Positions 17,901-25,310 of a stretch of DNA of 30,739 nucleotides are shown piece by piece. This stretch comes from Candidatus Eiseniibacteriota bacterium (GTDB lineage Bacteria > Eisenbacteria > RBG-16-71-46 > SZUA-252). Below the pieces are notes generated by a model, which was not told the origin of the DNA, did not search any database, and saw only the letters and a list, made by a program, of their open reading frames with translations. The stretch lies in the NCBI GenBank assembly GCA_031370645.1, contig JANMQV010000191.1:1-30739 (forward strand). The letters run 5' to 3'. How positions within the stretch are numbered: the stretch's first letter is position 1; each line of letters starts with the position of its first letter. A program made the translations under genes and the position numbers.

Positions 17901-19079
17901 TCAGTAGAGCAGATGCAATTGCAGCAACGTTTCGGTGAAGTCCTGGCCGCCGTAGGCGACGCCGTTGTCGTAGTCCACTTTCCGCACCAACGCTTCGAGG
18001 GCGAGGTAGGAGTACGGCATCGCGTACACGCCTCCGCCGAATCGCGACTTGGCGCCGAACTCGTGCTGACGATTTGGGTCGTAGAAGTCGTACGTCGCCT
18101 TGACCTCGAGACCCCGATGGACCAGGTAGCTCCATTCCTGCGACGTGACGACGCGGTTGACGGCCGGAGCGCCGGGGTCCTTCGAATGCTCCAGATCGAC
18201 CTCTCCGAGCCAGGTGAGCTTGTTCCAGGTGAGATAGCCGTAGAAACCATGGCGGTTGGTATCGCGTTGCCGCGTCGGATGGCGATAGCCGCTCGCGCCG
18301 AGCGCTGCGCCGACCGGCCCGAGGCGCCGCCGATAGACGGCGTTCACGACGCCGGCCACCTTCGTGTCGTTGTCGAGCGTGCTCCCCGGATTGCCGTTGA
18401 CGACGGCCGCCTGGATGTCGAACGAGCCGTGCGAGAACCCTGCCTCCAGCCCGACATCGCTGTTCGAGGGAGGCATGAAACCCAACTCGCTCCGGACGAA
18501 CATCGTGTGGTCGTCGAACTTCAGGCCGTAGGATGGGACGAAACGTCCGGCCTTCACGTAGAGCGTCGGCCGCAGATAGCCGAGCGCGAACGTCTCATAT
18601 CCCCCGGAAGCGGCGCGGTCGTAGTAAAGCGTCACTCGCGGGTCGGGCTGAAACGCGAGGTAGAGATCGGACTGCATCTGGAAGAAGTTGAGATGCGCCT
18701 CCTCGATGTTTCCCCCGACGTAGAACGTCCGGAAGTCGGCGCCGATCAGGATTTGCTTCGAGATCTTCGTCTCGATTTCCGCCAGCGCCTCCGGCTTGGA
18801 GCGGAGCCACGCGATCTCCTCGGGGATGAGTTTCTGCGCCGCGTACGAAGTGCGAAGGCCGCCGCCGGAGGGATTCACGTGGCAGAGCGCGCACTTCTGT
18901 TCGTAGCGCGCGGTATAGCGGGGAAGCGCCACCGCGGACGGGATCGCCGCGCCGCACGTGAGCCACAGGGCCGCGAGCAACAGGCACGCCTGCCACATGC
19001 ACGCGGACCACGGCCGCGCGGGCCAAGGGTGCGCCGCACGGCGCCTCTCGCCGCCCCTCGGCCCCGCCTCAGTTCTCAA
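17901..19079 (-). CDS. Monoheme cytochrome c fused to a predicted outer-membrane beta-barrel
   Basis: Signal peptide ending AVA-LP, CxxCH (CALCH, 18879-18893) near the mature N-terminus, amphipathic beta strands, and an aromatic C-terminal beta-signal (LQLHLLY). Start is TTG 19079 (GGAGG SD) or ATG 18998. Confidence 0.75.
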   Translation of the reverse strand: MRTEAGPRGGERRRAAHPWPARPWSACMWQACLLLAALWLTCGAAIPSAVALPRYTARYEQKCALCHVNPSGGGLRTSYAAQKLIPEEIAWLRSKPEALAEIETKISKQILIGADFRTFYVGGNIEEAHLNFFQMQSDLYLAFQPDPRVTLYYDRAASGGYETFALGYLRPTLYVKAGRFVPSYGLKFDDHTMFVRSELGFMPPSNSDVGLEAGFSHGSFDIQAAVVNGNPGSTLDNDTKVAGVVNAVYRRRLGPVGAALGASGYRHPTRQRDTNRHGFYGYLTWNKLTWLGEVDLEHSKDPGAPAVNRVVTSQEWSYLVHRGLEVKATYDFYDPNRQHEFGAKSRFGGGVYAMPYSYLALEALVRKVDYDNGVAYGGQDFTETLLQLHLLY

Positions 19080-20046
19080 GCGCGCCCTCCAGGATCCAGC
19101 GGTGGACCTTGTCGATCTCGGGCGCGGTGAAATAAGGACCGCCCTGTGGCATCCGCTCGCCGAAGCCCGGCGGCGAGATGATCTTCTGATAGATCCACGA
19201 ATTCGTGAGATCGAGCGGCTTGATGTATCCGAGCACAGACCCCGTGTAATCGGTCACGAGGCGATCGTACATCCGCGGGTCTCCGGGATTCGCGAAGTCG
19301 TGACAACTCGCACAGCGGCTTGTGAGCATGGGCTTGATGTCGGTCGCGAACGAGACGGAGGTTCCGAAGCCGACGACCTTGACCACCGGGCAGTCGGGAC
19401 CGACCTCGACCGTGCATGAGGTCGCACCTCCCGCGGTGGGACTGAACGCGACGGTCACCGTTGTCGAGACGCCGATGGGAAGCTCGGCCGGGCCGCCGCC
19501 GATGAGAACTTGGAATTCGGAGCAGGAGGGAACGATGTCGACAAGAAGCGGTGCGGTCCCCGCGCTGATGACTTCGAATGTGGCAAGTCTCGTCTGACCG
19601 ACCCGGAGCGATCCGAAGGAAATCGAATCTTGGAGCACGACGCAGCGGGCTCCCGGCGCCTGAAGCGCGGCCGTGCCGGCGAGCGGGACGGACGAAACGT
19701 TCGTCCCGAGTTCGAGCGTGCAGGGAAACGTCCCGGCGGAGCCCGGCGCGAACGCCACGACGACCGTTTGCGACTCGCCGGCGCCGAGCGCATAGCCGCC
19801 TCCGCCCGATTGGATCGTGTACTCGGAGCAGGAGAGTCCGGCGTTGCCGGTCAGCGTACCGGTCCCGACGTTCGTGATGGTGACGGCTCGCGTACTCGAC
19901 CGGCTCACGACGACGGTGCCGAAGTCGAGGGAAGTGACGGAGAGTTGGCTCCGCGGCTGCGGCTTGAACGGAGCGCCGAGATCGGAGCAGCCCGCTAGGA
20001 TGACCATCGATGTCAGCGCGAAGATGAAACGACGCAGAAAGGTCAT
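19069..20046 (-). CDS. Lipoprotein with two Ig-like (ASH/choice-of-anchor D-like) domains and a C-terminal monoheme cytochrome c
   Basis: Lipobox LAGC and two ~100-aa repeats (LDFGTV..TITNVGTGTL..VAFAP; ISFGSL..ISAGTAPL..VAFSP). SFATDIKPML..CASCH (19300-19314), distal MP, WILEGA. Confidence 0.8.
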   Translation of the reverse strand: MTFLRRFIFALTSMVILAGCSDLGAPFKPQPRSQLSVTSLDFGTVVVSRSSTRAVTITNVGTGTLTGNAGLSCSEYTIQSGGGGYALGAGESQTVVVAFAPGSAGTFPCTLELGTNVSSVPLAGTAALQAPGARCVVLQDSISFGSLRVGQTRLATFEVISAGTAPLLVDIVPSCSEFQVLIGGGPAELPIGVSTTVTVAFSPTAGGATSCTVEVGPDCPVVKVVGFGTSVSFATDIKPMLTSRCASCHDFANPGDPRMYDRLVTDYTGSVLGYIKPLDLTNSWIYQKIISPPGFGERMPQGGPYFTAPEIDKVHRWILEGALEN

Positions 20047-20211
20047 CCGCCCCCTAAACCGGTGATCCGACGCCGGGTGAGTCTAGACCGAACGGGGCTG
20101 TGTGGCCTCTCTGGAAATCGCGGCGGCGAGATTCGCGGACTCAAACACCGTATCCCCAGAATGCACGATTTGGTGCCCCGAGGCCGCTATTTCGCTATAG
20201 CATTTAGACCG

Positions 20212-20235
20212 TAACTTGTTGTAAGATAGAGACTA
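20212..20235. promoter_or_regulatory. IHF-like site (copy 3)
   Basis: TAACTTGTTGTAAGATAGAGACTA has the same core as the two sites upstream of groES. Confidence 0.4.
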
Positions 20236-20253
20236 AACAATACGTCCTCGCCG

Positions 20254-20268
20254 TGGTGTAGAACTTGC
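20254..20268 (+). promoter_or_regulatory. Putative sigma54 (-24/-12) promoter for the peptidase operon
   Basis: TGGTGTAGAACTTGC has TGG and TTGC at exact GG-N10-GC spacing, about 50 nt before ATG 20318. Confidence 0.5.
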
Positions 20269-20317
20269 CACTAGTCTTATGGCTCTTACTGTCTCGAAAT
20301 TCGCCTTGGAGGACACC

Positions 20318-20974
20318 ATGCGCCGCGCCCCTCGCAACGCCCCTCTCTGGATCCTCATCGGCGCGGCCGTCGTCATCGCGGCGGCTACCGTCAGCACGCG
20401 AGCGGGGGGAGTACGCCCCGCGAAGCCGGCGGTCGGCGAAGTCACCGCCCCGGCGACGCCTCGGTCGACCGACCCCGCCGACGAGAATGTTGCGCCGAGG
20501 CCGGCGCGCATCGAGCCGCTCAAGTTCTCCGACTCCCCGGCCACGGCCACGGCTCCGGTGACCGAATCGACCACCAACGCCGCCGCGACGTCACTCGCCT
20601 CGGAACCGGTCGGGGTCGCGGGCATGGTTGTCGGAATCGATCCCGAGACCGGAAAGCTCGGCATGCCGTCGCGCGAATTCCGCGACGCCATGCGCGACAA
20701 CCCGCGTGGCCCGGCGTTGAGCCGATCGATGGAGGGACTTCAGGTCATCCATCGGCCCGACGGATCGAAGATGGTCGACTTGAGGGATCGTTTCCAGGAC
20801 TACGCCATCGTCCGCATCGCGCCGGATGGGCGGAAGGAACAGACGTGTGTTCAAGGGCCGGAAGTAGAGGCCGCGCTCGTCGGGAAGCCGGCCGCCGTGG
20901 CGCCTGAGCCCGCGCCCGCCGATCCGAATTCGAACGCCGCTACCGACACCACGTCCGAACCGGCGGAGCGCTAA
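20318..20974 (+). CDS. Exported Pro/Ala/Thr-rich protein with a compact 'IDPETGKL...PDGS..VDL..RF...PDG....C' domain
   Basis: SD GGAGG before ATG 20318, N-terminal hydrophobic signal or anchor, low-complexity linkers and a single Cys. It resembles, from memory and unverified, the so-called post-PEP-CTERM-1 domain. Confidence 0.75.
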   Translation: MRRAPRNAPLWILIGAAVVIAAATVSTRAGGVRPAKPAVGEVTAPATPRSTDPADENVAPRPARIEPLKFSDSPATATAPVTESTTNAAATSLASEPVGVAGMVVGIDPETGKLGMPSREFRDAMRDNPRGPALSRSMEGLQVIHRPDGSKMVDLRDRFQDYAIVRIAPDGRKEQTCVQGPEVEAALVGKPAAVAPEPAPADPNSNAATDTTSEPAER

Positions 20975-20977
20975 CCG

Positions 20978-22681
20978 ATGTCGCGACTCCGGCCGTACCT
21001 CCAGGCGATCGCCGTGGCGTTCGCGCTCTTCCTCGGGATCGCCACCGCTGCCGGCGCCGCCACCATCGTGATCGTGAACAACGACGGTCCCGGCGAGGGA
21101 TTCAACGATCCCACGCCCGACCCGCCGTTCGGCGGAAACCCGGGCACGACGCTCGGCGAGAAGCGCCTCTTCATCTTCAATTACGCCGCGTCGATCTGGG
21201 GCGGCATTCTCCCGAGCGACGTCACCATCCGCGTGCTCGCCCAATTCAACTCGCAGACCTGCGACGCCACGAGTGGTGTTCTCGGAAGCGCCGGCGCCCG
21301 AAGCGCGCACGCCAACTTCCCCGGCGCACCGTTCGCGAACATGTATTACCACCAGGCGCTCGCGAACCGCCTCTCGGGTACTGATCTGAGTCCCACGCTC
21401 GAGGACATCAACGCGACGTTCAACTCCGACGTCGACAACGCGGTCTGCCTCGGCGACATCAGTTGGTATTACGGAACCGACGGCCAAGACGGCGCCGATA
21501 TCGAACTCCTTCCGGTCGTCCTCCACGAGCTCGGGCACGGTTTGGGGTTCAGCACCTTTGCCTCTTCAAGCACCGGGGCCTTCCTCGACGGCACGCCCGA
21601 CATCTTCGCCCACTTCCTGCTCAACACGTCGACCGGTCTCCACTGGGACCAAATGACCAACAACAACGCCCGGAAATCCTCGGCGGTCAACACGGGCAAT
21701 TTGGTGTGGGACGGCTCGTCGGTGAACCTGTGGGCGCCGTACGTTCTCCAGCACGAACCGGAATTGCTCGTCCTCTCGCCCGCGACGATCGACGGGTCGT
21801 ACGTCGCCAACTTGGCCGGCTTCGGCGGATCGATCGACGCGACCGGAATCACAAGCGGCATCGTGCTCGTGACCGACACCGTGGCCCCGGTGAACGACGG
21901 CTGCGAGTCGTTCGTCAACGGCCCGGCCCTGGCGGGAAAATTCGCCCTCATCGACCGCGGCCTCTGCACTTTCGTGGCGAAGGTGGCGGCGGCTCAGGCG
22001 AGCGGCGCCATCGGCGTCATCGTGGCGAACAACGTCGCGGGTGCGCCGACCACGATGGGGGGTACCGATCCCTCGATCACGATTCCGTCGATCATGATCT
22101 CGCAGGCCGACGGCACGACGATCAAGAACGCGCTCCTCTCCGGCCCGGTCACCGCGACGATCCGGCGGCATCCGACGCAGCTCGCGGGCGCCAACAGTGG
22201 CGGAAAGGTGAAGATGTACGCTCCGAACCCCGTGGAACCTGGCTCCTCGGTGTCGCACTTCGATGTGAGCGCGTTCCCCGACCTTCTCATGGAGCCCGGT
22301 ATCAACTCGGGGCTTCACGACGGCGTCGACCTTACGCGGAGACTCTTCGAGGACATCGGCTGGATGCCGGCGATCACCGGTGTCGAGCCGGTCGTGACGG
22401 CCCCGAAGTTCCGGGTCCGAAGCGCGCCGAATCCCTTCACGCCGGCGACGACGATCCTGCTCGCCCTTCCGACCGCGGGGCGCACGAGGGTCGCGGTCTA
22501 TGACGTGCAGGGCCGCTTGGTAAAACGACTCCTCGATACCTGGATGCCGGCGGGAACGCATGGAATCGCCTGGGACGGCAGCGACGAGCATGGCCGTCGC
22601 GCGGCCGCGGGCGTCTACTTCTCGCGCGTGGAATCAAACGGACGCCGCGCGGGAGAGAGGCTGGTCAAACTAGAGCGATGA
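20978..22681 (+). CDS. Secreted zinc metallopeptidase with inserted PA domain and C-terminal FlgD-Ig/T9SS-CTD-like domain (paralog 1)
   Basis: Signal peptide, HELGHGLG, PA domain (GKFALIDRGLCTFVAKVAAAQASGAIGVIVANN, TIPSIMIS), SSVSHFD..LLMEP, and APNPF..VYDVQGRLV..WDG..GVYF. Confidence 0.88.
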   Translation: MSRLRPYLQAIAVAFALFLGIATAAGAATIVIVNNDGPGEGFNDPTPDPPFGGNPGTTLGEKRLFIFNYAASIWGGILPSDVTIRVLAQFNSQTCDATSGVLGSAGARSAHANFPGAPFANMYYHQALANRLSGTDLSPTLEDINATFNSDVDNAVCLGDISWYYGTDGQDGADIELLPVVLHELGHGLGFSTFASSSTGAFLDGTPDIFAHFLLNTSTGLHWDQMTNNNARKSSAVNTGNLVWDGSSVNLWAPYVLQHEPELLVLSPATIDGSYVANLAGFGGSIDATGITSGIVLVTDTVAPVNDGCESFVNGPALAGKFALIDRGLCTFVAKVAAAQASGAIGVIVANNVAGAPTTMGGTDPSITIPSIMISQADGTTIKNALLSGPVTATIRRHPTQLAGANSGGKVKMYAPNPVEPGSSVSHFDVSAFPDLLMEPGINSGLHDGVDLTRRLFEDIGWMPAITGVEPVVTAPKFRVRSAPNPFTPATTILLALPTAGRTRVAVYDVQGRLVKRLLDTWMPAGTHGIAWDGSDEHGRRAAAGVYFSRVESNGRRAGERLVKLER

Positions 22682-24369
22682 AGAAGCTCGTCGCTTCACT
22701 CCTTGCCGTCGCCACGATTCTTAGTCCTGGGCTCTTCGGACCGCGGGCAACTTCCGCCGCCACGATCACGATCATCAACGCGGACGGTGCGGGCGAGGGC
22801 TTCAACGATCCGACCCCCGTCTCACCGGTCGGCGGAAACCCCGGAACCACGCGTGGCGAGCAGCGGCTGAACGTCTTCAGCCAAGCCGCCTCGATTTGGG
22901 GCGCGCTCCTCTCGAGCAGCGTCGTGATCCAGGTGGTCGCCCAATTCGATCCGCAGTTCTGCACGTCGAACAGCGCCGTCCTCGGAAGCGCCGGCGCTCT
23001 GACCGCCGACAGCGACTTTCCGGGCGCCGAATTTCCGAATACCTGGTACCCCCAAGCCCTCGCCAACAAACTCGCGGGCATGGATCGGGATCCGGGCGCC
23101 GATATCGCCGCGACCTTCAACTCCGATGTCGACAACAGCACCTGCCTCGGTTCCGTGAGCTGGTACTACGGCTACGACGGGAACGAAGGCAACGACGTGG
23201 AACTCCTTCCGGTGGTATTGCACGAACTGGGGCACGGGCTTGGATTCGCGACGTTCGCCAATCCGAATTCGGGCGGGCTCCTCCTGAATATGCCCGACAT
23301 CTACACTCGCTTCATGCTCGACAAGACGATCGGGCTCCATTGGAGCGAGATGACCGATGCGCAGCGGTTCGTCTCGAGGGGGAATTCAGGAAATCTCGTT
23401 TGGGACGGCGCCGCGACGACGTTTCGGGCAAGGACATACCTCTCGGCACGCACCGAAGTCGAGGCCTACGCCCCGGCCTTCTGGGCCGGTGTCTACGAGA
23501 CCCCGGCTGCGCTCTTTGGGCCGACGCTCAGCACGACGGGCGTCACCGCCGAGGTCGTGGAGGTCAACGACGGAACGTGGCCGCCGGATGCCTGCCAGCC
23601 GATCCTGAACGTGGCCGCGCTGAACGGGAAGATCGCCTACATCGACCGCGGCAGCTGCTCGTTCGAGTTCAAGGTGGCGGCCGCGCAGGCGGCCGGTGCC
23701 GTTGGAGTCATCGTGGTGAACAACGTCGCCGGGGGGGCGTTCCAGATGCCCGGCACGAATCCTTCGATCACGATCCCCTCGGTGATGATTTCCGGCGAAG
23801 AAGGGGAACCGCTCCGCGAGGACGTGGAGGCGGGCGGCACCATCGTGACCCTTCGGAGCAACAGCGCGATTCGCTCCGGCACGCACCCCGACGGCCAGGT
23901 TCGCCTCTACGCGCCGAACGCCGTGGAGCCCGGCTCGTCGCTTTCCCATTTCGACGTCAGCGCTATCCCCGACCTCCTCATGGAGCCGAACATCAACTAT
24001 GGACTTCACAACAGCGTCGACCTGACGCGGGAAGCCTTCGAGGACATGGGCTGGCTCCCGCGACTCACCGCCGTCGCGGAGGGGCAGCCCGCCCCCCGCT
24101 TCCGCGTGGCGAGCGCTCCGAATCCGTTCCGTCCCTCGACGGTCATCTCGCTCGAACTTCCTTCCGGAGGCACGACCCGCGTGGAGATCTACGATCCGCA
24201 GGGGAGGCTGGTGAAGCGGCTGGTGAACGGCTGGCTCCCGGCGGGGCACCACTCGGTCACGTGGGATGGGACGAATTCCTCGGGTAGCCGCACGGCCGCG
24301 GGAGTCTACTTCACGCGAATCACCGCGAACGGCGTGCATGCCGGGCAGCGGTTGGTGAAGCTCGACTAA
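22678..24369 (+). CDS. Secreted zinc metallopeptidase with PA and FlgD-Ig/T9SS-CTD-like domains (paralog 2)
   Basis: Same architecture and many identical blocks (GEGFNDPTP, GGNPGTT, ATFNSDVDN, ELLPVVLHELGHGLGF, VEPGSS.SHFDVSA.PDLLMEP). ATGA-coupled to paralog 1. Confidence 0.88.
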   Translation: MKKLVASLLAVATILSPGLFGPRATSAATITIINADGAGEGFNDPTPVSPVGGNPGTTRGEQRLNVFSQAASIWGALLSSSVVIQVVAQFDPQFCTSNSAVLGSAGALTADSDFPGAEFPNTWYPQALANKLAGMDRDPGADIAATFNSDVDNSTCLGSVSWYYGYDGNEGNDVELLPVVLHELGHGLGFATFANPNSGGLLLNMPDIYTRFMLDKTIGLHWSEMTDAQRFVSRGNSGNLVWDGAATTFRARTYLSARTEVEAYAPAFWAGVYETPAALFGPTLSTTGVTAEVVEVNDGTWPPDACQPILNVAALNGKIAYIDRGSCSFEFKVAAAQAAGAVGVIVVNNVAGGAFQMPGTNPSITIPSVMISGEEGEPLREDVEAGGTIVTLRSNSAIRSGTHPDGQVRLYAPNAVEPGSSLSHFDVSAIPDLLMEPNINYGLHNSVDLTREAFEDMGWLPRLTAVAEGQPAPRFRVASAPNPFRPSTVISLELPSGGTTRVEIYDPQGRLVKRLVNGWLPAGHHSVTWDGTNSSGSRTAAGVYFTRITANGVHAGQRLVKLD

Positions 24370-25310
24370 CTTCCCGCCCCGATCCGAAACCCCTCTTCGA
24401 TCATGTCCGCGTGGATGCCGACCGTGTCGTTCACATCCCGCGCGTAACCGCCGGCCAGCGTCGCGAAGACCGGAATTCCTCGTACCACGCACGCGTCGAA
24501 GACGAGCCTGTCGCGCGCGCGCAAATCTTCCCGAGTCAGTTTCAAATTCCCCAACTGATCGTCCTCGTAGGGATCCGCGCCCGCCACGTATGCCACTAAA
24601 TCCGGCTCCACGCGATCGAGAATGCGCGGCACGTTGTGGCGGAGCGAGGCGAGATAGCGCTCTCCGCCGGCGTACGTCTCGAGACCGATGTCGAGGTCGC
24701 TCGGTGGCTTCACGGCGGGGTAGTTGTCCTCCTCGTGAATTGAGAAGGTAAAGACGGTCGGATCGTCGTGGAAGATGGCGGCGGTGCCGTTTCCCTGATG
24801 CACGTCGACGTCGATGACCGCGGCGCGATGAATACGACTGTCGGCCTGCAGGTCGCGGATGGCGATCGCCACGTCGTGGAGCACGCAGAATCCTTCGCCA
24901 TGATCGGGGAACGCATGGTGAAGGCCGCCTCCGATGTGGAGGGCGATGCCGCGCTCCAGCGCGCGGCGCGCCGCCTCGATGCTCCCCCCGGCGCCGAGAA
25001 ACGAAGCCTCAACCAATTCCCGCGAGTAGGGCAGTTCCAGCAGCGCCTCATCCAGTGCGGTCAGGCGCCCCTGGAGGAGCTTGTCGATATAGAGCTGATC
25101 GTGAACGCGTCGGACCTGCTCGACCGTGGCGGGCGCGGGCGCGATGAATTCGTCATCGCGGACGAGACCCCTCCGCACCAGTTCGTCACGGATGAATTTG
25201 TATTTCCGCATCGGGAAGACGTGCGCGCCGATGTCGGCGTAGTAGCCGTCGTGATAGATGACCGCGGGTTTTCCGGAGGCGGGGCGAGAGATGGAGGGCT
25301 CGGGCGTCAT
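24366..25310 (-). CDS. Zn-dependent histone deacetylase family protein
   Basis: HVFPMRKY, GGLHHA, GFC, DVDVHQGNGT, SIH, AGADPYEDDQLG, GGY. Confidence 0.93.
   Translation of the reverse strand: MTPEPSISRPASGKPAVIYHDGYYADIGAHVFPMRKYKFIRDELVRRGLVRDDEFIAPAPATVEQVRRVHDQLYIDKLLQGRLTALDEALLELPYSRELVEASFLGAGGSIEAARRALERGIALHIGGGLHHAFPDHGEGFCVLHDVAIAIRDLQADSRIHRAAVIDVDVHQGNGTAAIFHDDPTVFTFSIHEEDNYPAVKPPSDLDIGLETYAGGERYLASLRHNVPRILDRVEPDLVAYVAGADPYEDDQLGNLKLTREDLRARDRLVFDACVVRGIPVFATLAGGYARDVNDTVGIHADMIEEGFRIGAGS

Follow-up and report, generated by a model that had tools for sequence, protein, structure and literature searches.

Gene organization of the accessory-peptidase locus

The 30,739 nucleotides at positions 1-30,739 of contig JANMQV010000191.1 of a Candidatus Eiseniibacteriota bacterium, an uncultured sediment organism (GenBank assembly GCA_031370645.1; this whole stretch of DNA is referred to as the window) carry on the forward strand three tightly packed genes encoding a small accessory protein (20318-20974) and two paralogous metallopeptidases, peptidase 1 (20978-22681) and peptidase 2 (22678-24369). 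The accessory gene runs from an ATG at 20318 to a TAA at 20972-20974, encodes 218 amino acids and contains a match to the NCBIfam family NF047450 ('post-PEP-CTERM_1'). Its stop codon is separated from the peptidase 1 ATG at 20978 by exactly 3 nucleotides (CCG). The stop of peptidase 1 and the start of peptidase 2 share 4 nucleotides. A preliminary description of this DNA interpreted the accessory protein as a possible trans-encoded cysteine-switch propeptide that serves both paralogs as an inhibitor or folding chaperone, and the analysis presented here partly supports that interpretation. The genomes behind all sequences used are metagenome-assembled and all signal peptides were assigned by eye.

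Peptidase 1 (567 amino acids) consists of a signal peptide, a leishmanolysin-like metzincin domain split by a protease-associated (PA) domain and a C-terminal sorting domain of the type IX secretion system (T9SS). Peptidase 2 (563 amino acids) shares this architecture and is 55% identical to peptidase 1 (311/566). In both proteins the conserved block AATIxIxNxDGxGEGFNDPTP directly follows the signal peptide, and 31/31 homologues from 29 loci are built in the same way. The AlphaFold2 (AF2) model of peptidase 1, with a predicted local distance difference test (pLDDT) score of 84.3, places the signal helix at residues 2-19 and the first catalytic strand at residues 30-34, with a pLDDT of 96 at residues 31-40. 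Because the catalytic fold begins directly after the signal peptide, in the model as well as in the homologues, there is no room for a pro-domain in cis, in agreement with the preliminary description.

The metzincin motif HExxHxxG is present as H183-E-L-G-H187-G-L-G190 within the segment HELGHGLGF (21524-21550), which comprises the zinc-binding helix and the metzincin glycine. In an alignment of 30 homologues, H183, E184, H187, G188, L189, G190 and F191 are invariant (30/30). Position +11 after H183 is a threonine and the canonical HExxHxxGxxH pattern is absent. Beyond the PA insertion, H427 and M438 (LMEP) are invariant, as are G422, S423, S424, S426, L437, E439 and P440, all within the segment GSSVSH427...LM438EP (22241-22297). 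Based on the metzincin pattern and the fold match described below, H427 is the presumed third zinc ligand and M438 the presumed Met-turn residue.

At E ≤ 0.01, Pfam identified only the PA domain and FlgD_ig, an Ig-like C-terminal domain, in both peptidases, and the leishmanolysin family M8 (PF01457) had no match in either. The NCBIfam family NF038122 ('metallo_LGF') shares the HExxH...LGF signature, and in homologues without a PA domain the match extends over almost the entire profile (at locus L079, positions 5-273 of 274). However, scores range from 37.5 to 56.9 bits (37.5 and 40.1 for the window peptidases, 42-56.9 for PA-less relatives) against a cut-off of 80, so the peptidases are relatives that lie outside NF038122 as defined. 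When the complete peptidase model was first searched with Foldseek, all matches were to PA domains, led by those of VSR1 (PA-peptide complexes), or to C-terminal domains. In a VIA search of 48,161 PDB representatives, ranks 1-10 were PA domains and the best match of the catalytic part was leishmanolysin (1lml_A), with Z 14.1, a root-mean-square deviation of 3.3 Å over 199 aligned residues, 18% identity and a model range of 24-485. The next catalytic-fold matches were matrix metalloproteinase (MMP) 12 (3ba0_A) and proMMP-9 (8k5v_A), each with Z 8.6 and 137 aligned residues. By their modelled fold, the peptidases are metzincins closest to leishmanolysin.

The PA domain inserted into the catalytic domain of peptidase 1 spans residues 302-382 (21881-22123; PF02225, E = 2.2e-21). 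R327, G328, C330 and F332 of its RGxCxF loop (21950-21975) are nearly invariant in the alignment of 30 homologues, and the same loop is found in peptidase 2. A natural homologue of 331 amino acids (L024, 7227-8219) is without a PA domain, its two catalytic halves being joined directly. Several gammaproteobacterial peptidases among loci L074-L083 are PA-less as well; the accessory proteins that go with the PA-less versions are shorter and some carry lipoboxes. As described in extracts of a study of plant VSR1, the arginine of the RGxCxF loop binds the free C-terminal carboxylate of the cargo (PMC8740768). By analogy, the PA insert of the peptidases may hold substrate C-termini, which would hint at a cleavage preference near C-termini. 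The T9SS type A sorting domain of peptidase 1 (22427-22669; TIGR04183, 24.4 bits, cut-off 23) is also matched by FlgD_ig. C-terminal ends vary within the family, with a JDVT-CTERM signal at L079 and no recognized signal at L018, L019 and L028.

The accessory protein begins with MRRAPRNAPLWILIGAAVVIAAATVSTRA, which was read as a signal peptide or as a signal anchor. This segment (residues 1-31, 20318-20410) has three arginines, a 16-residue hydrophobic core and the sequence TRA/GG, and is followed by a low-complexity linker (residues 32-98, 20411-20611) whose 67 residues include 14 alanines, 11 prolines and 9 threonines and whose alignment columns are unconserved. The conserved β-hairpin domain occupies approximately residues 99-190; domain numbering, used where stated, is protein numbering minus 98. 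NF047450 matches residues 101-182 (20618-20863) over profile positions 1-81 of 82 with 63.1 bits (E = 3.3e-17, cut-off 28), and a search of the genome returned the window accessory as the only copy (65.9 bits). The domain is made up of three hairpins that follow the pattern h-h-x-(P/A)-D-G-x (GIDPETG, HRPDGSK and IAPDGRK). In the AF2 model of the domain alone, strands are located at 45-47, 53-55, 63-69 and 75-81 and a helix at 82-90 (domain numbering). The only cysteine, C177 (TGT, 20846-20848; domain residue 79), lies six residues past the last DG, in hairpin 3, within a local C-[VT]-[DQE] motif. The earlier picture of an exported protein with one compact domain and exactly one cysteine, encoded 3 bp upstream of a peptidase gene, is thus confirmed, export being judged from the N-terminal hydrophobic segment. 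Among 172 Met-initiated relatives, a hydrophobic 15-mer near the N-terminus is present in 154, and some relatives possess clear AxA sites or lipoboxes. A lipobox-like motif was found in 9/172 relatives and, by eye, at several gammaproteobacterial loci. The N-terminus of the window accessory contains no cysteine, so it has no lipobox.

The accessory family is large. With a profile built from 29 accessory domains, 4465 cluster representatives out of 1.84 billion were matched at E ≤ 0.001, of which 1562 reached E ≤ 1e-10; every name shown was hypothetical, and the best 150 matches are 98-226 amino acids long. The accessory had no Pfam match. Against the PDB, its small model of moderate confidence yielded no Foldseek match at E ≤ 0.001 and a best Z of 2.5 in a wide VIA search. 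The ESM Atlas returned only clusters of unnamed hypothetical proteins (0.93-0.90). Two candidate relationships were rejected: DUF411, at 0.83 in the ESM Atlas, falls below the reliable range, and Tcp10_C, seen faintly in 7/29 domain sequences when Pfam was searched at E ≤ 10 (best E 0.0058), was attributed to the repeated PDG hairpins. The NF047450 domain is already catalogued, with no function stated. A literature search for the name 'post-PEP-CTERM' found nothing; NCBIfam accessions were outside that search.

The junctions between the genes suggest translational coupling. A Shine-Dalgarno-like GGAG (20965-20968) lies within the final codons of the accessory gene, 9 nucleotides ahead of the peptidase ATG. 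Across 77 accessory-peptidase pairs, the stop-to-start gap lies between -4 and +6 nucleotides in 58, an underestimate because automatic start-codon choice failed in some pairs, and GGAG, GAGG or AGGA occurs within 20 nucleotides ahead of the peptidase start in 53, mostly inside the last three codons of the accessory gene. Accessory C-termini are strikingly conserved as E-E/V-R/K, with EER in 27, EEK in 17, EVK in 15, EEE in 9 and EDR in 9 of 141 representatives. The underlying codons, GAG-GAG or GAG-GTG-A, form Shine-Dalgarno sequences (GAGGAG, GAGGTGA) for the downstream peptidase gene, as seen in the window (20960-20977) and at the junctions of L002-L083. Judged from these sequences, the conserved C-terminus is probably a footprint of translational coupling visible at the protein level. 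As part of the overall interpretation given below, the accessory and both peptidase genes would form one translationally coupled operon.

Linkage of accessory and peptidase across phyla

Accessory genes are found next to peptidase genes almost without exception. Contigs representing one genome per species contained 28 related loci, and in 28/28 a peptidase homologue is located directly downstream on the same strand. These loci belong to Eisenbacteria, Acidobacteriota (Pyrinomonadaceae, Blastocatellia, Holophagae), Krumholzibacteriia, Latescibacteria, Lysobacterales and an unclassified proteobacterium. Within the phylum of the window, the order accessory then peptidase was observed in 36/37 loci, comprising the 29 best family matches and 8 loci picked for long open frames. 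In the class of a Lysobacterales match, the domain was present in 10 of 400 sampled genomes; 11 new loci from this sample and a second copy from an acidobacterial genome (L072) all have the peptidase directly downstream (12/12). After removal of 13 duplicate entries, addition of locus L084 and counting only distinct accessory sequences, 69/70 distinct loci outside the window show the accessory followed by the peptidase. They span Eisenbacteria, Acidobacteriota, Krumholzibacteriia, Latescibacteria, Lysobacterales and other Gammaproteobacteria. As kin are not independent, this tally is a description rather than a statistic. Recurrence on this scale is far beyond chance and the linkage is close to obligate.

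The exception, L042 (764-1483), encodes a divergent, cysteine-rich accessory paralog with seven extra cysteines in its N-terminal half. A peptidase gene lies upstream of it, and the open reading frame downstream resembles a multi-pass membrane transporter, not a peptidase. An accessory gene following a peptidase gene was seen only at L042 and L078.

Co-occurrence at the genome level shows the same pattern. Among 206 genomes of the phylum, which include the unpublished genome G073 (source of locus L038), NF047450 is present in 119 and the peptidase, searched with its catalytic region (residues 27-260) at E ≤ 1e-10, in 122. All 119 domain-bearing genomes are among the 122, and per-family tallies match. 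In three genomes the searches recovered the peptidase only: in G178 and G122 the match lies at the start of a contig, and in G079 a divergent accessory with the conserved cysteine is encoded directly upstream (L084). Copy numbers are usually equal, for example 3 and 3 in G072, G093, G095, G120 and G123. The genus of the window is a copy-number exception with one accessory and two tandem peptidases.

No fusion of the two proteins was detected; a search for fused homologues was among the checks proposed in the preliminary description. A word-indexed search for longer proteins containing accessory residues 96-190 gave 187 candidates, none of which is a fused accessory-peptidase, and none of the best 150 profile matches exceeds 226 amino acids. 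Several long frames that run from stop to stop in genomes of the phylum turned out, on inspection, to hold ordinary gene pairs. At L060 (4100-5200), no stop codon separates the accessory from the peptidase and both lie in one open frame. The peptidase nevertheless retains its own methionine and an intact signal peptide, so this locus was rejected as a fusion as well. Loss of a stop codon, an error in sequencing or a read-through form could account for the shared frame at L060.

The conserved cysteine and the predicted complex

The cysteine of the accessory is its best-conserved residue. It is invariant in an alignment of 39 close homologues (39/39) and present in 138/141 further representatives, the remaining three being gaps. 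At the level of distinct loci, 58/70 have the cysteine. The 12 cysteine-less loci comprise L011, L055 and ten members of a divergent gammaproteobacterial group. Within the 11 loci of that group, the cysteine is retained once (L074), replaced by histidine at position +6 after the hairpin 3 DG in five (L075, L077, L079, L080, L081) and by glutamate in two (L073, where a histidine precedes it, and L076), and unalignable in three; the histidine and glutamate assignments rest on gap-free spacing from the DG motif. Cysteine, histidine and glutamate are all able to ligate zinc. That the divergent branch exchanges the cysteine for no residues other than histidine or glutamate fits a metal ligand and not a disulfide or packing residue. 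The invariant peptidase cysteines are even in number, two in the catalytic domain (C95, C157) and two in the PA domain, which leaves the accessory cysteine with no obvious disulfide partner.

To model the interaction, complex prediction was run on peptidase 1 residues 27-470 (30-homologue alignment), the accessory without its first 98 residues (48-row alignment) and zinc. The complex scored 0.83 (0.84, 0.83 and 0.83 in individual runs) compared with 0.00 for the best of three controls. In calibration, the mark was reached by 116/157 solved complexes and 2/215 mismatched pairs, figures that hold only roughly here because our own alignments and a zinc ligand were used. The three runs share at least 64% of contacts and the pLDDT of the partner is 57 or higher. 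As no solved structure is related to the accessory, it is unlikely that the score reflects a remembered structure. The model thus supports binding of the accessory to peptidase 1.

The predicted interface covers the active-site cleft of the peptidase. On the peptidase, it comprises an edge strand and the following loop (97-115), H183/E184, H187/G188, residues 192-198, and residues near the third-ligand motif, namely 420-424 and 426-427, including H427, and 440-443 just past the Met-turn. On the accessory, residues 50-57, 61-69, 75, 77-81 (with the cysteine at 79) and 83-91 contribute (domain numbering), largely from the strands of hairpins 2 and 3, while the disordered tail is not involved. 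The residue pairs with the lowest predicted error are accessory strand 63-67 with peptidase 100-104 and 180, and accessory strand 52-57 with peptidase 107-113. Taken together, the interface lists and pairs place the accessory domain in the substrate-binding cleft with its cysteine strand facing the zinc site. Of the checks put forward in the preliminary description, three came out in favour of its proposal: the conservation of the cysteine, the adjacency to HExxH peptidases and, at the level of a model, the placement of the accessory on the active-site cleft in a complex prediction with zinc. Docking of the accessory C-terminus into the carboxylate-binding RGxCxF loop of the PA domain was also considered and rejected, as the tail beyond domain position 91 lies outside the predicted interface and the last codons spell the Shine-Dalgarno sequence of the peptidase gene.

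A proposed trans-acting latency mechanism and its relation to known systems

Our preferred interpretation, to which we assign a probability of roughly 0.55, is that the separately encoded accessory binds the pro-domain-less metzincin across its cleft, caps the zinc with its cysteine and keeps the enzyme latent until export. The accessory would reach the periplasm by its own signal and would probably stay tethered there by an uncleaved signal anchor (a lipid anchor in some relatives) and its long flexible linker. It would capture the newly exported peptidase as it folds in the periplasm, with the approximately 85-residue β-hairpin domain spanning the active-site cleft. One hairpin strand may pair with the edge strand of the cleft in a substrate-like manner while the next strand would carry C177 to the catalytic zinc with its ligands H183, H187 and, presumably, H427. 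The peptidase would thereby be latent inside the cell envelope, as it is with a cis pro-peptide in other metzincins. Activity would arise on separation from the partner, with the accessory remaining in place as the peptidase leaves by way of the type IX or another sorting system. The accessory accompanies peptidases with differing C-terminal ends, so the partnership belongs to the catalytic domain and not to the secretion route.

Several observations weigh against this interpretation. The prediction was available as interface lists without coordinates, and C177 could merely be buried at the interface; ligation of the catalytic zinc by C177 is what we infer from its modelled position. Augmentation of an edge strand by a β-strand is a docking mode favoured by predictors, and the accessory domain alone folds at moderate confidence only (AF2 pLDDT 76, pTM 0.41). 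Two members of the main family are without the cysteine: L011 (5219-5488) has a serine, and L055 a glycine with a cysteine six residues earlier. The divergent relatives L078, L082 and L083 have no alignable third hairpin, the cysteine position included. A PRCGxPD-type motif, as in the switch of MMPs, is absent from the accessory. The absence of any fused form also counts against it, and a stoichiometric inhibitor is hard to reconcile with a single accessory gene beside two peptidase genes. The two peptidases are identical at 30/52 interface positions and at 152/248 positions in the rest of the catalytic domain, which carries no signal in either direction, so the earlier suggestion that one accessory serves both paralogs finds no support. 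L011 and L055 may be natural tests of the cysteine requirement, or assembly errors.

The first alternative, which we consider unlikely, is that the accessory is a steric chaperone, a membrane-tethered periplasmic folding catalyst of the Lif/LipH kind that pro-domain-less peptidases need before secretion, with inhibition as a by-product and no need for a contact between cysteine and zinc. Such foldases have the same architecture of N-terminal anchor, flexible linker and periplasmic client-binding domain, in an operon with a secreted client, and linkage and co-occurrence would fit them equally well. A chaperone that recycles would also account more readily than an inhibitor acting 1:1 for the ratio of one accessory to two peptidases. 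However, the predicted interface covers a finished active-site cleft with its zinc ligands and not a broad folding surface, and exchange of the best-conserved accessory residue for histidine or glutamate only points to a metal contact. In addition, the domain is very small and, with no Pfam match, shows no similarity to the Lif family. Inhibition and folding assistance are not mutually exclusive, as classical pro-peptides do both. Less probable still is a non-inhibitory partner. The accessory would then form a stable subunit or serve as an anchor or escort, for example by fixing the peptidase to the envelope or passing it on to the sorting machinery, and its cysteine would be structural or engaged in an intermolecular disulfide. 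Binding is predicted under this view too, the linkage is tight across lineages whose peptidases carry differing C-terminal sorting signals or none, and the invariant peptidase residues C95 and C157 flank interface residues 94, 97 and 158. Yet the accessory persists whatever the sorting signal, which ties it to the catalytic domain, and H183, E184, H187 and H427 would be occluded by the predicted interface. The even number of invariant peptidase cysteines and the replacements of the accessory cysteine by histidine and glutamate, incompatible with a disulfide, speak against it as well.

We regard it as highly improbable that the genes are linked without their products binding, as would be the case if the accessory were co-transcribed for another reason (for instance in a regulatory or leader function, or as an envelope protein with no relation to the peptidase) and complex prediction had given a false positive. 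Gene adjacency alone is weak evidence of binding, and a complex score is not a measurement, the more so as it was calibrated without user alignments or a ligand. Set against this are the retention of the pair in all but one of the distinct loci across phyla, copy numbers that track within genomes, including those with three of each, and the separation of the complex score from controls that were all 0.00, at a mark rarely reached by mismatched pairs.

The closest functional analogue of the accessory is the potempin system. As described in extracts of a study of Tannerella forsythia, potempins PotA-E are small exported lipoproteins that specifically inhibit KLIKK peptidases; their genes end at most 5 bp before, or overlap, the start of a T9SS peptidase gene and are co-transcribed with it as bicistronic units; PotA obstructs a metzincin cleft, where its Asp64 caps the catalytic zinc; and potempins are described as unique to T. 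forsythia (PMC9890683). As far as these extracts reach, the accessory is similar in being small, exported and encoded directly upstream of, and coupled to, a T9SS peptidase gene. A membrane tether would be a further likeness, potempins being lipoproteins and the accessory probably anchored, with lipoboxes recognized by eye in some gammaproteobacterial relatives. In contrast to potempins, the window accessory has no lipobox, and its proposed warhead is cysteine (histidine or glutamate in relatives) instead of the aspartate of PotA. No sequence or fold similarity to potempins was detected, the fold searches having used the small model of moderate confidence. The thousands of cluster representatives in the accessory family also contrast with the single-species range described for potempins. 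KLIKK peptidases keep their own pro-peptides whereas the accessory-linked peptidases have none. Relative to potempins, the differences thus lie in the proposed warhead, the breadth of distribution, pro-peptide-less peptidases as partners and, apparently, sequence and fold.

Cysteine-switch pro-peptides are known from ulilysin and mirolysin, and the switch motif of MMPs is PRCGxPD. According to extracts of a study of leishmanolysin, a cysteine switch has been described in its pro-segment, and leishmanolysins are marked among metzincins by a large insertion between the glycine and the third histidine (PMC11957388). Similar to such pro-peptides, the accessory has a conserved unpaired cysteine in a segment predicted to lie over a metzincin cleft with three histidine ligands. 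The presumed split zinc site of the window peptidases likewise follows the leishmanolysin-type order of HExxHxxG, a long insertion, and then a histidine and Met-turn. However, the accessory is a separate gene product with its own start and export signal rather than an N-terminal extension, so activation by cutting a pro-peptide off the same chain is impossible, and it shares neither sequence nor fold with known pro-peptides. Being neither in cis nor equipped with their motif, it falls outside the cysteine-switch pro-peptides, though it may work alike.

The spacing of 11 residues between the third histidine and the Met-turn methionine in leishmanolysin (GP63, H334 to M345) is the same as between H427 and M438. 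As far as extracts on leishmanolysin (MEROPS M8; 1lml) show, the enzymes also share a HExxHxLGFS-type motif, the large insertion between the glycine and the third histidine (H427, presumed, in peptidase 1) and, presumably, the Met-turn (PMC11957388). In contrast to leishmanolysin, with which sequence identity is 18%, the window peptidases are bacterial, have a PA domain as the insertion, carry a T9SS C-terminal domain and have no cis pro-peptide.

Lif-type foldases provide a second comparison. Lif is helical and encoded downstream of the lipase gene. In extracts of the foldase literature, LipH is described as anchored in the membrane and required ahead of type II export, and Lif as a steric chaperone that is grouped with the pro-peptides of proteases (PMC13381987, PMC3352829). 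Like the accessory, these proteins are separate periplasmic partners with a membrane anchor and a flexible linker, and their genes share an operon with that of a secreted, pro-domain-less hydrolase (PMC13381987, PMC3352829, PMC12096544). As pro-peptide surrogates, according to these extracts, they act before outer-membrane export, and the accessory is proposed to do the same. Unlike Lif and LipH, it has a metallopeptidase as client instead of a lipase, shows no detected homology and possesses a much smaller, all-β domain.

The upstream neighbours of the three-gene set are divergently transcribed. On the reverse strand, 19069-20046 encodes a choice-of-anchor D lipoprotein with Ig-like domains and 17901-19079 an unassigned 392-amino-acid protein. 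The two genes overlap by 11 nucleotides and both products contain a CxxCH haem c attachment signature (CASCH and CALCH). The family name 'post-PEP-CTERM' does not describe the context of the window, where the upstream neighbour of the accessory is this divergently transcribed lipoprotein gene and the peptidases carry T9SS rather than PEP-CTERM domains. A scan of 19900-24700 for promoters and terminators returned no sites of either kind, an uninformative result as the consensus was of the sigma-70 type. Among 8 sequencing runs that contain the stretch, none is listed as RNA.

Metzincins are a textbook case of latency imposed by a cis pro-peptide. If our interpretation is correct, a large bacterial branch of metzincins would have outsourced latency to a separate, linked gene, a new solution to zymogen control, and the catalogued but unexplained domain family NF047450 would gain a function. 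To our knowledge, the accessory would then be the first protein scaffold of natural origin to target active sites of the leishmanolysin type. For annotation, proteins listed as 'PA domain / T9SS' can be annotated as leishmanolysin-like metzincins, and the upstream 'hypothetical protein' as their cognate partner. More tentatively, the pair may represent a widespread two-gene zymogen, in which a tethered mini-domain caps the zinc of a leishmanolysin-like branch in trans with a cysteine (or histidine or glutamate) and activation occurs when the two are pulled apart at the outer-membrane sorting machinery, be it the T9SS or others, with no proteolytic cut. In such a system, latency would be encoded spatially rather than chemically.

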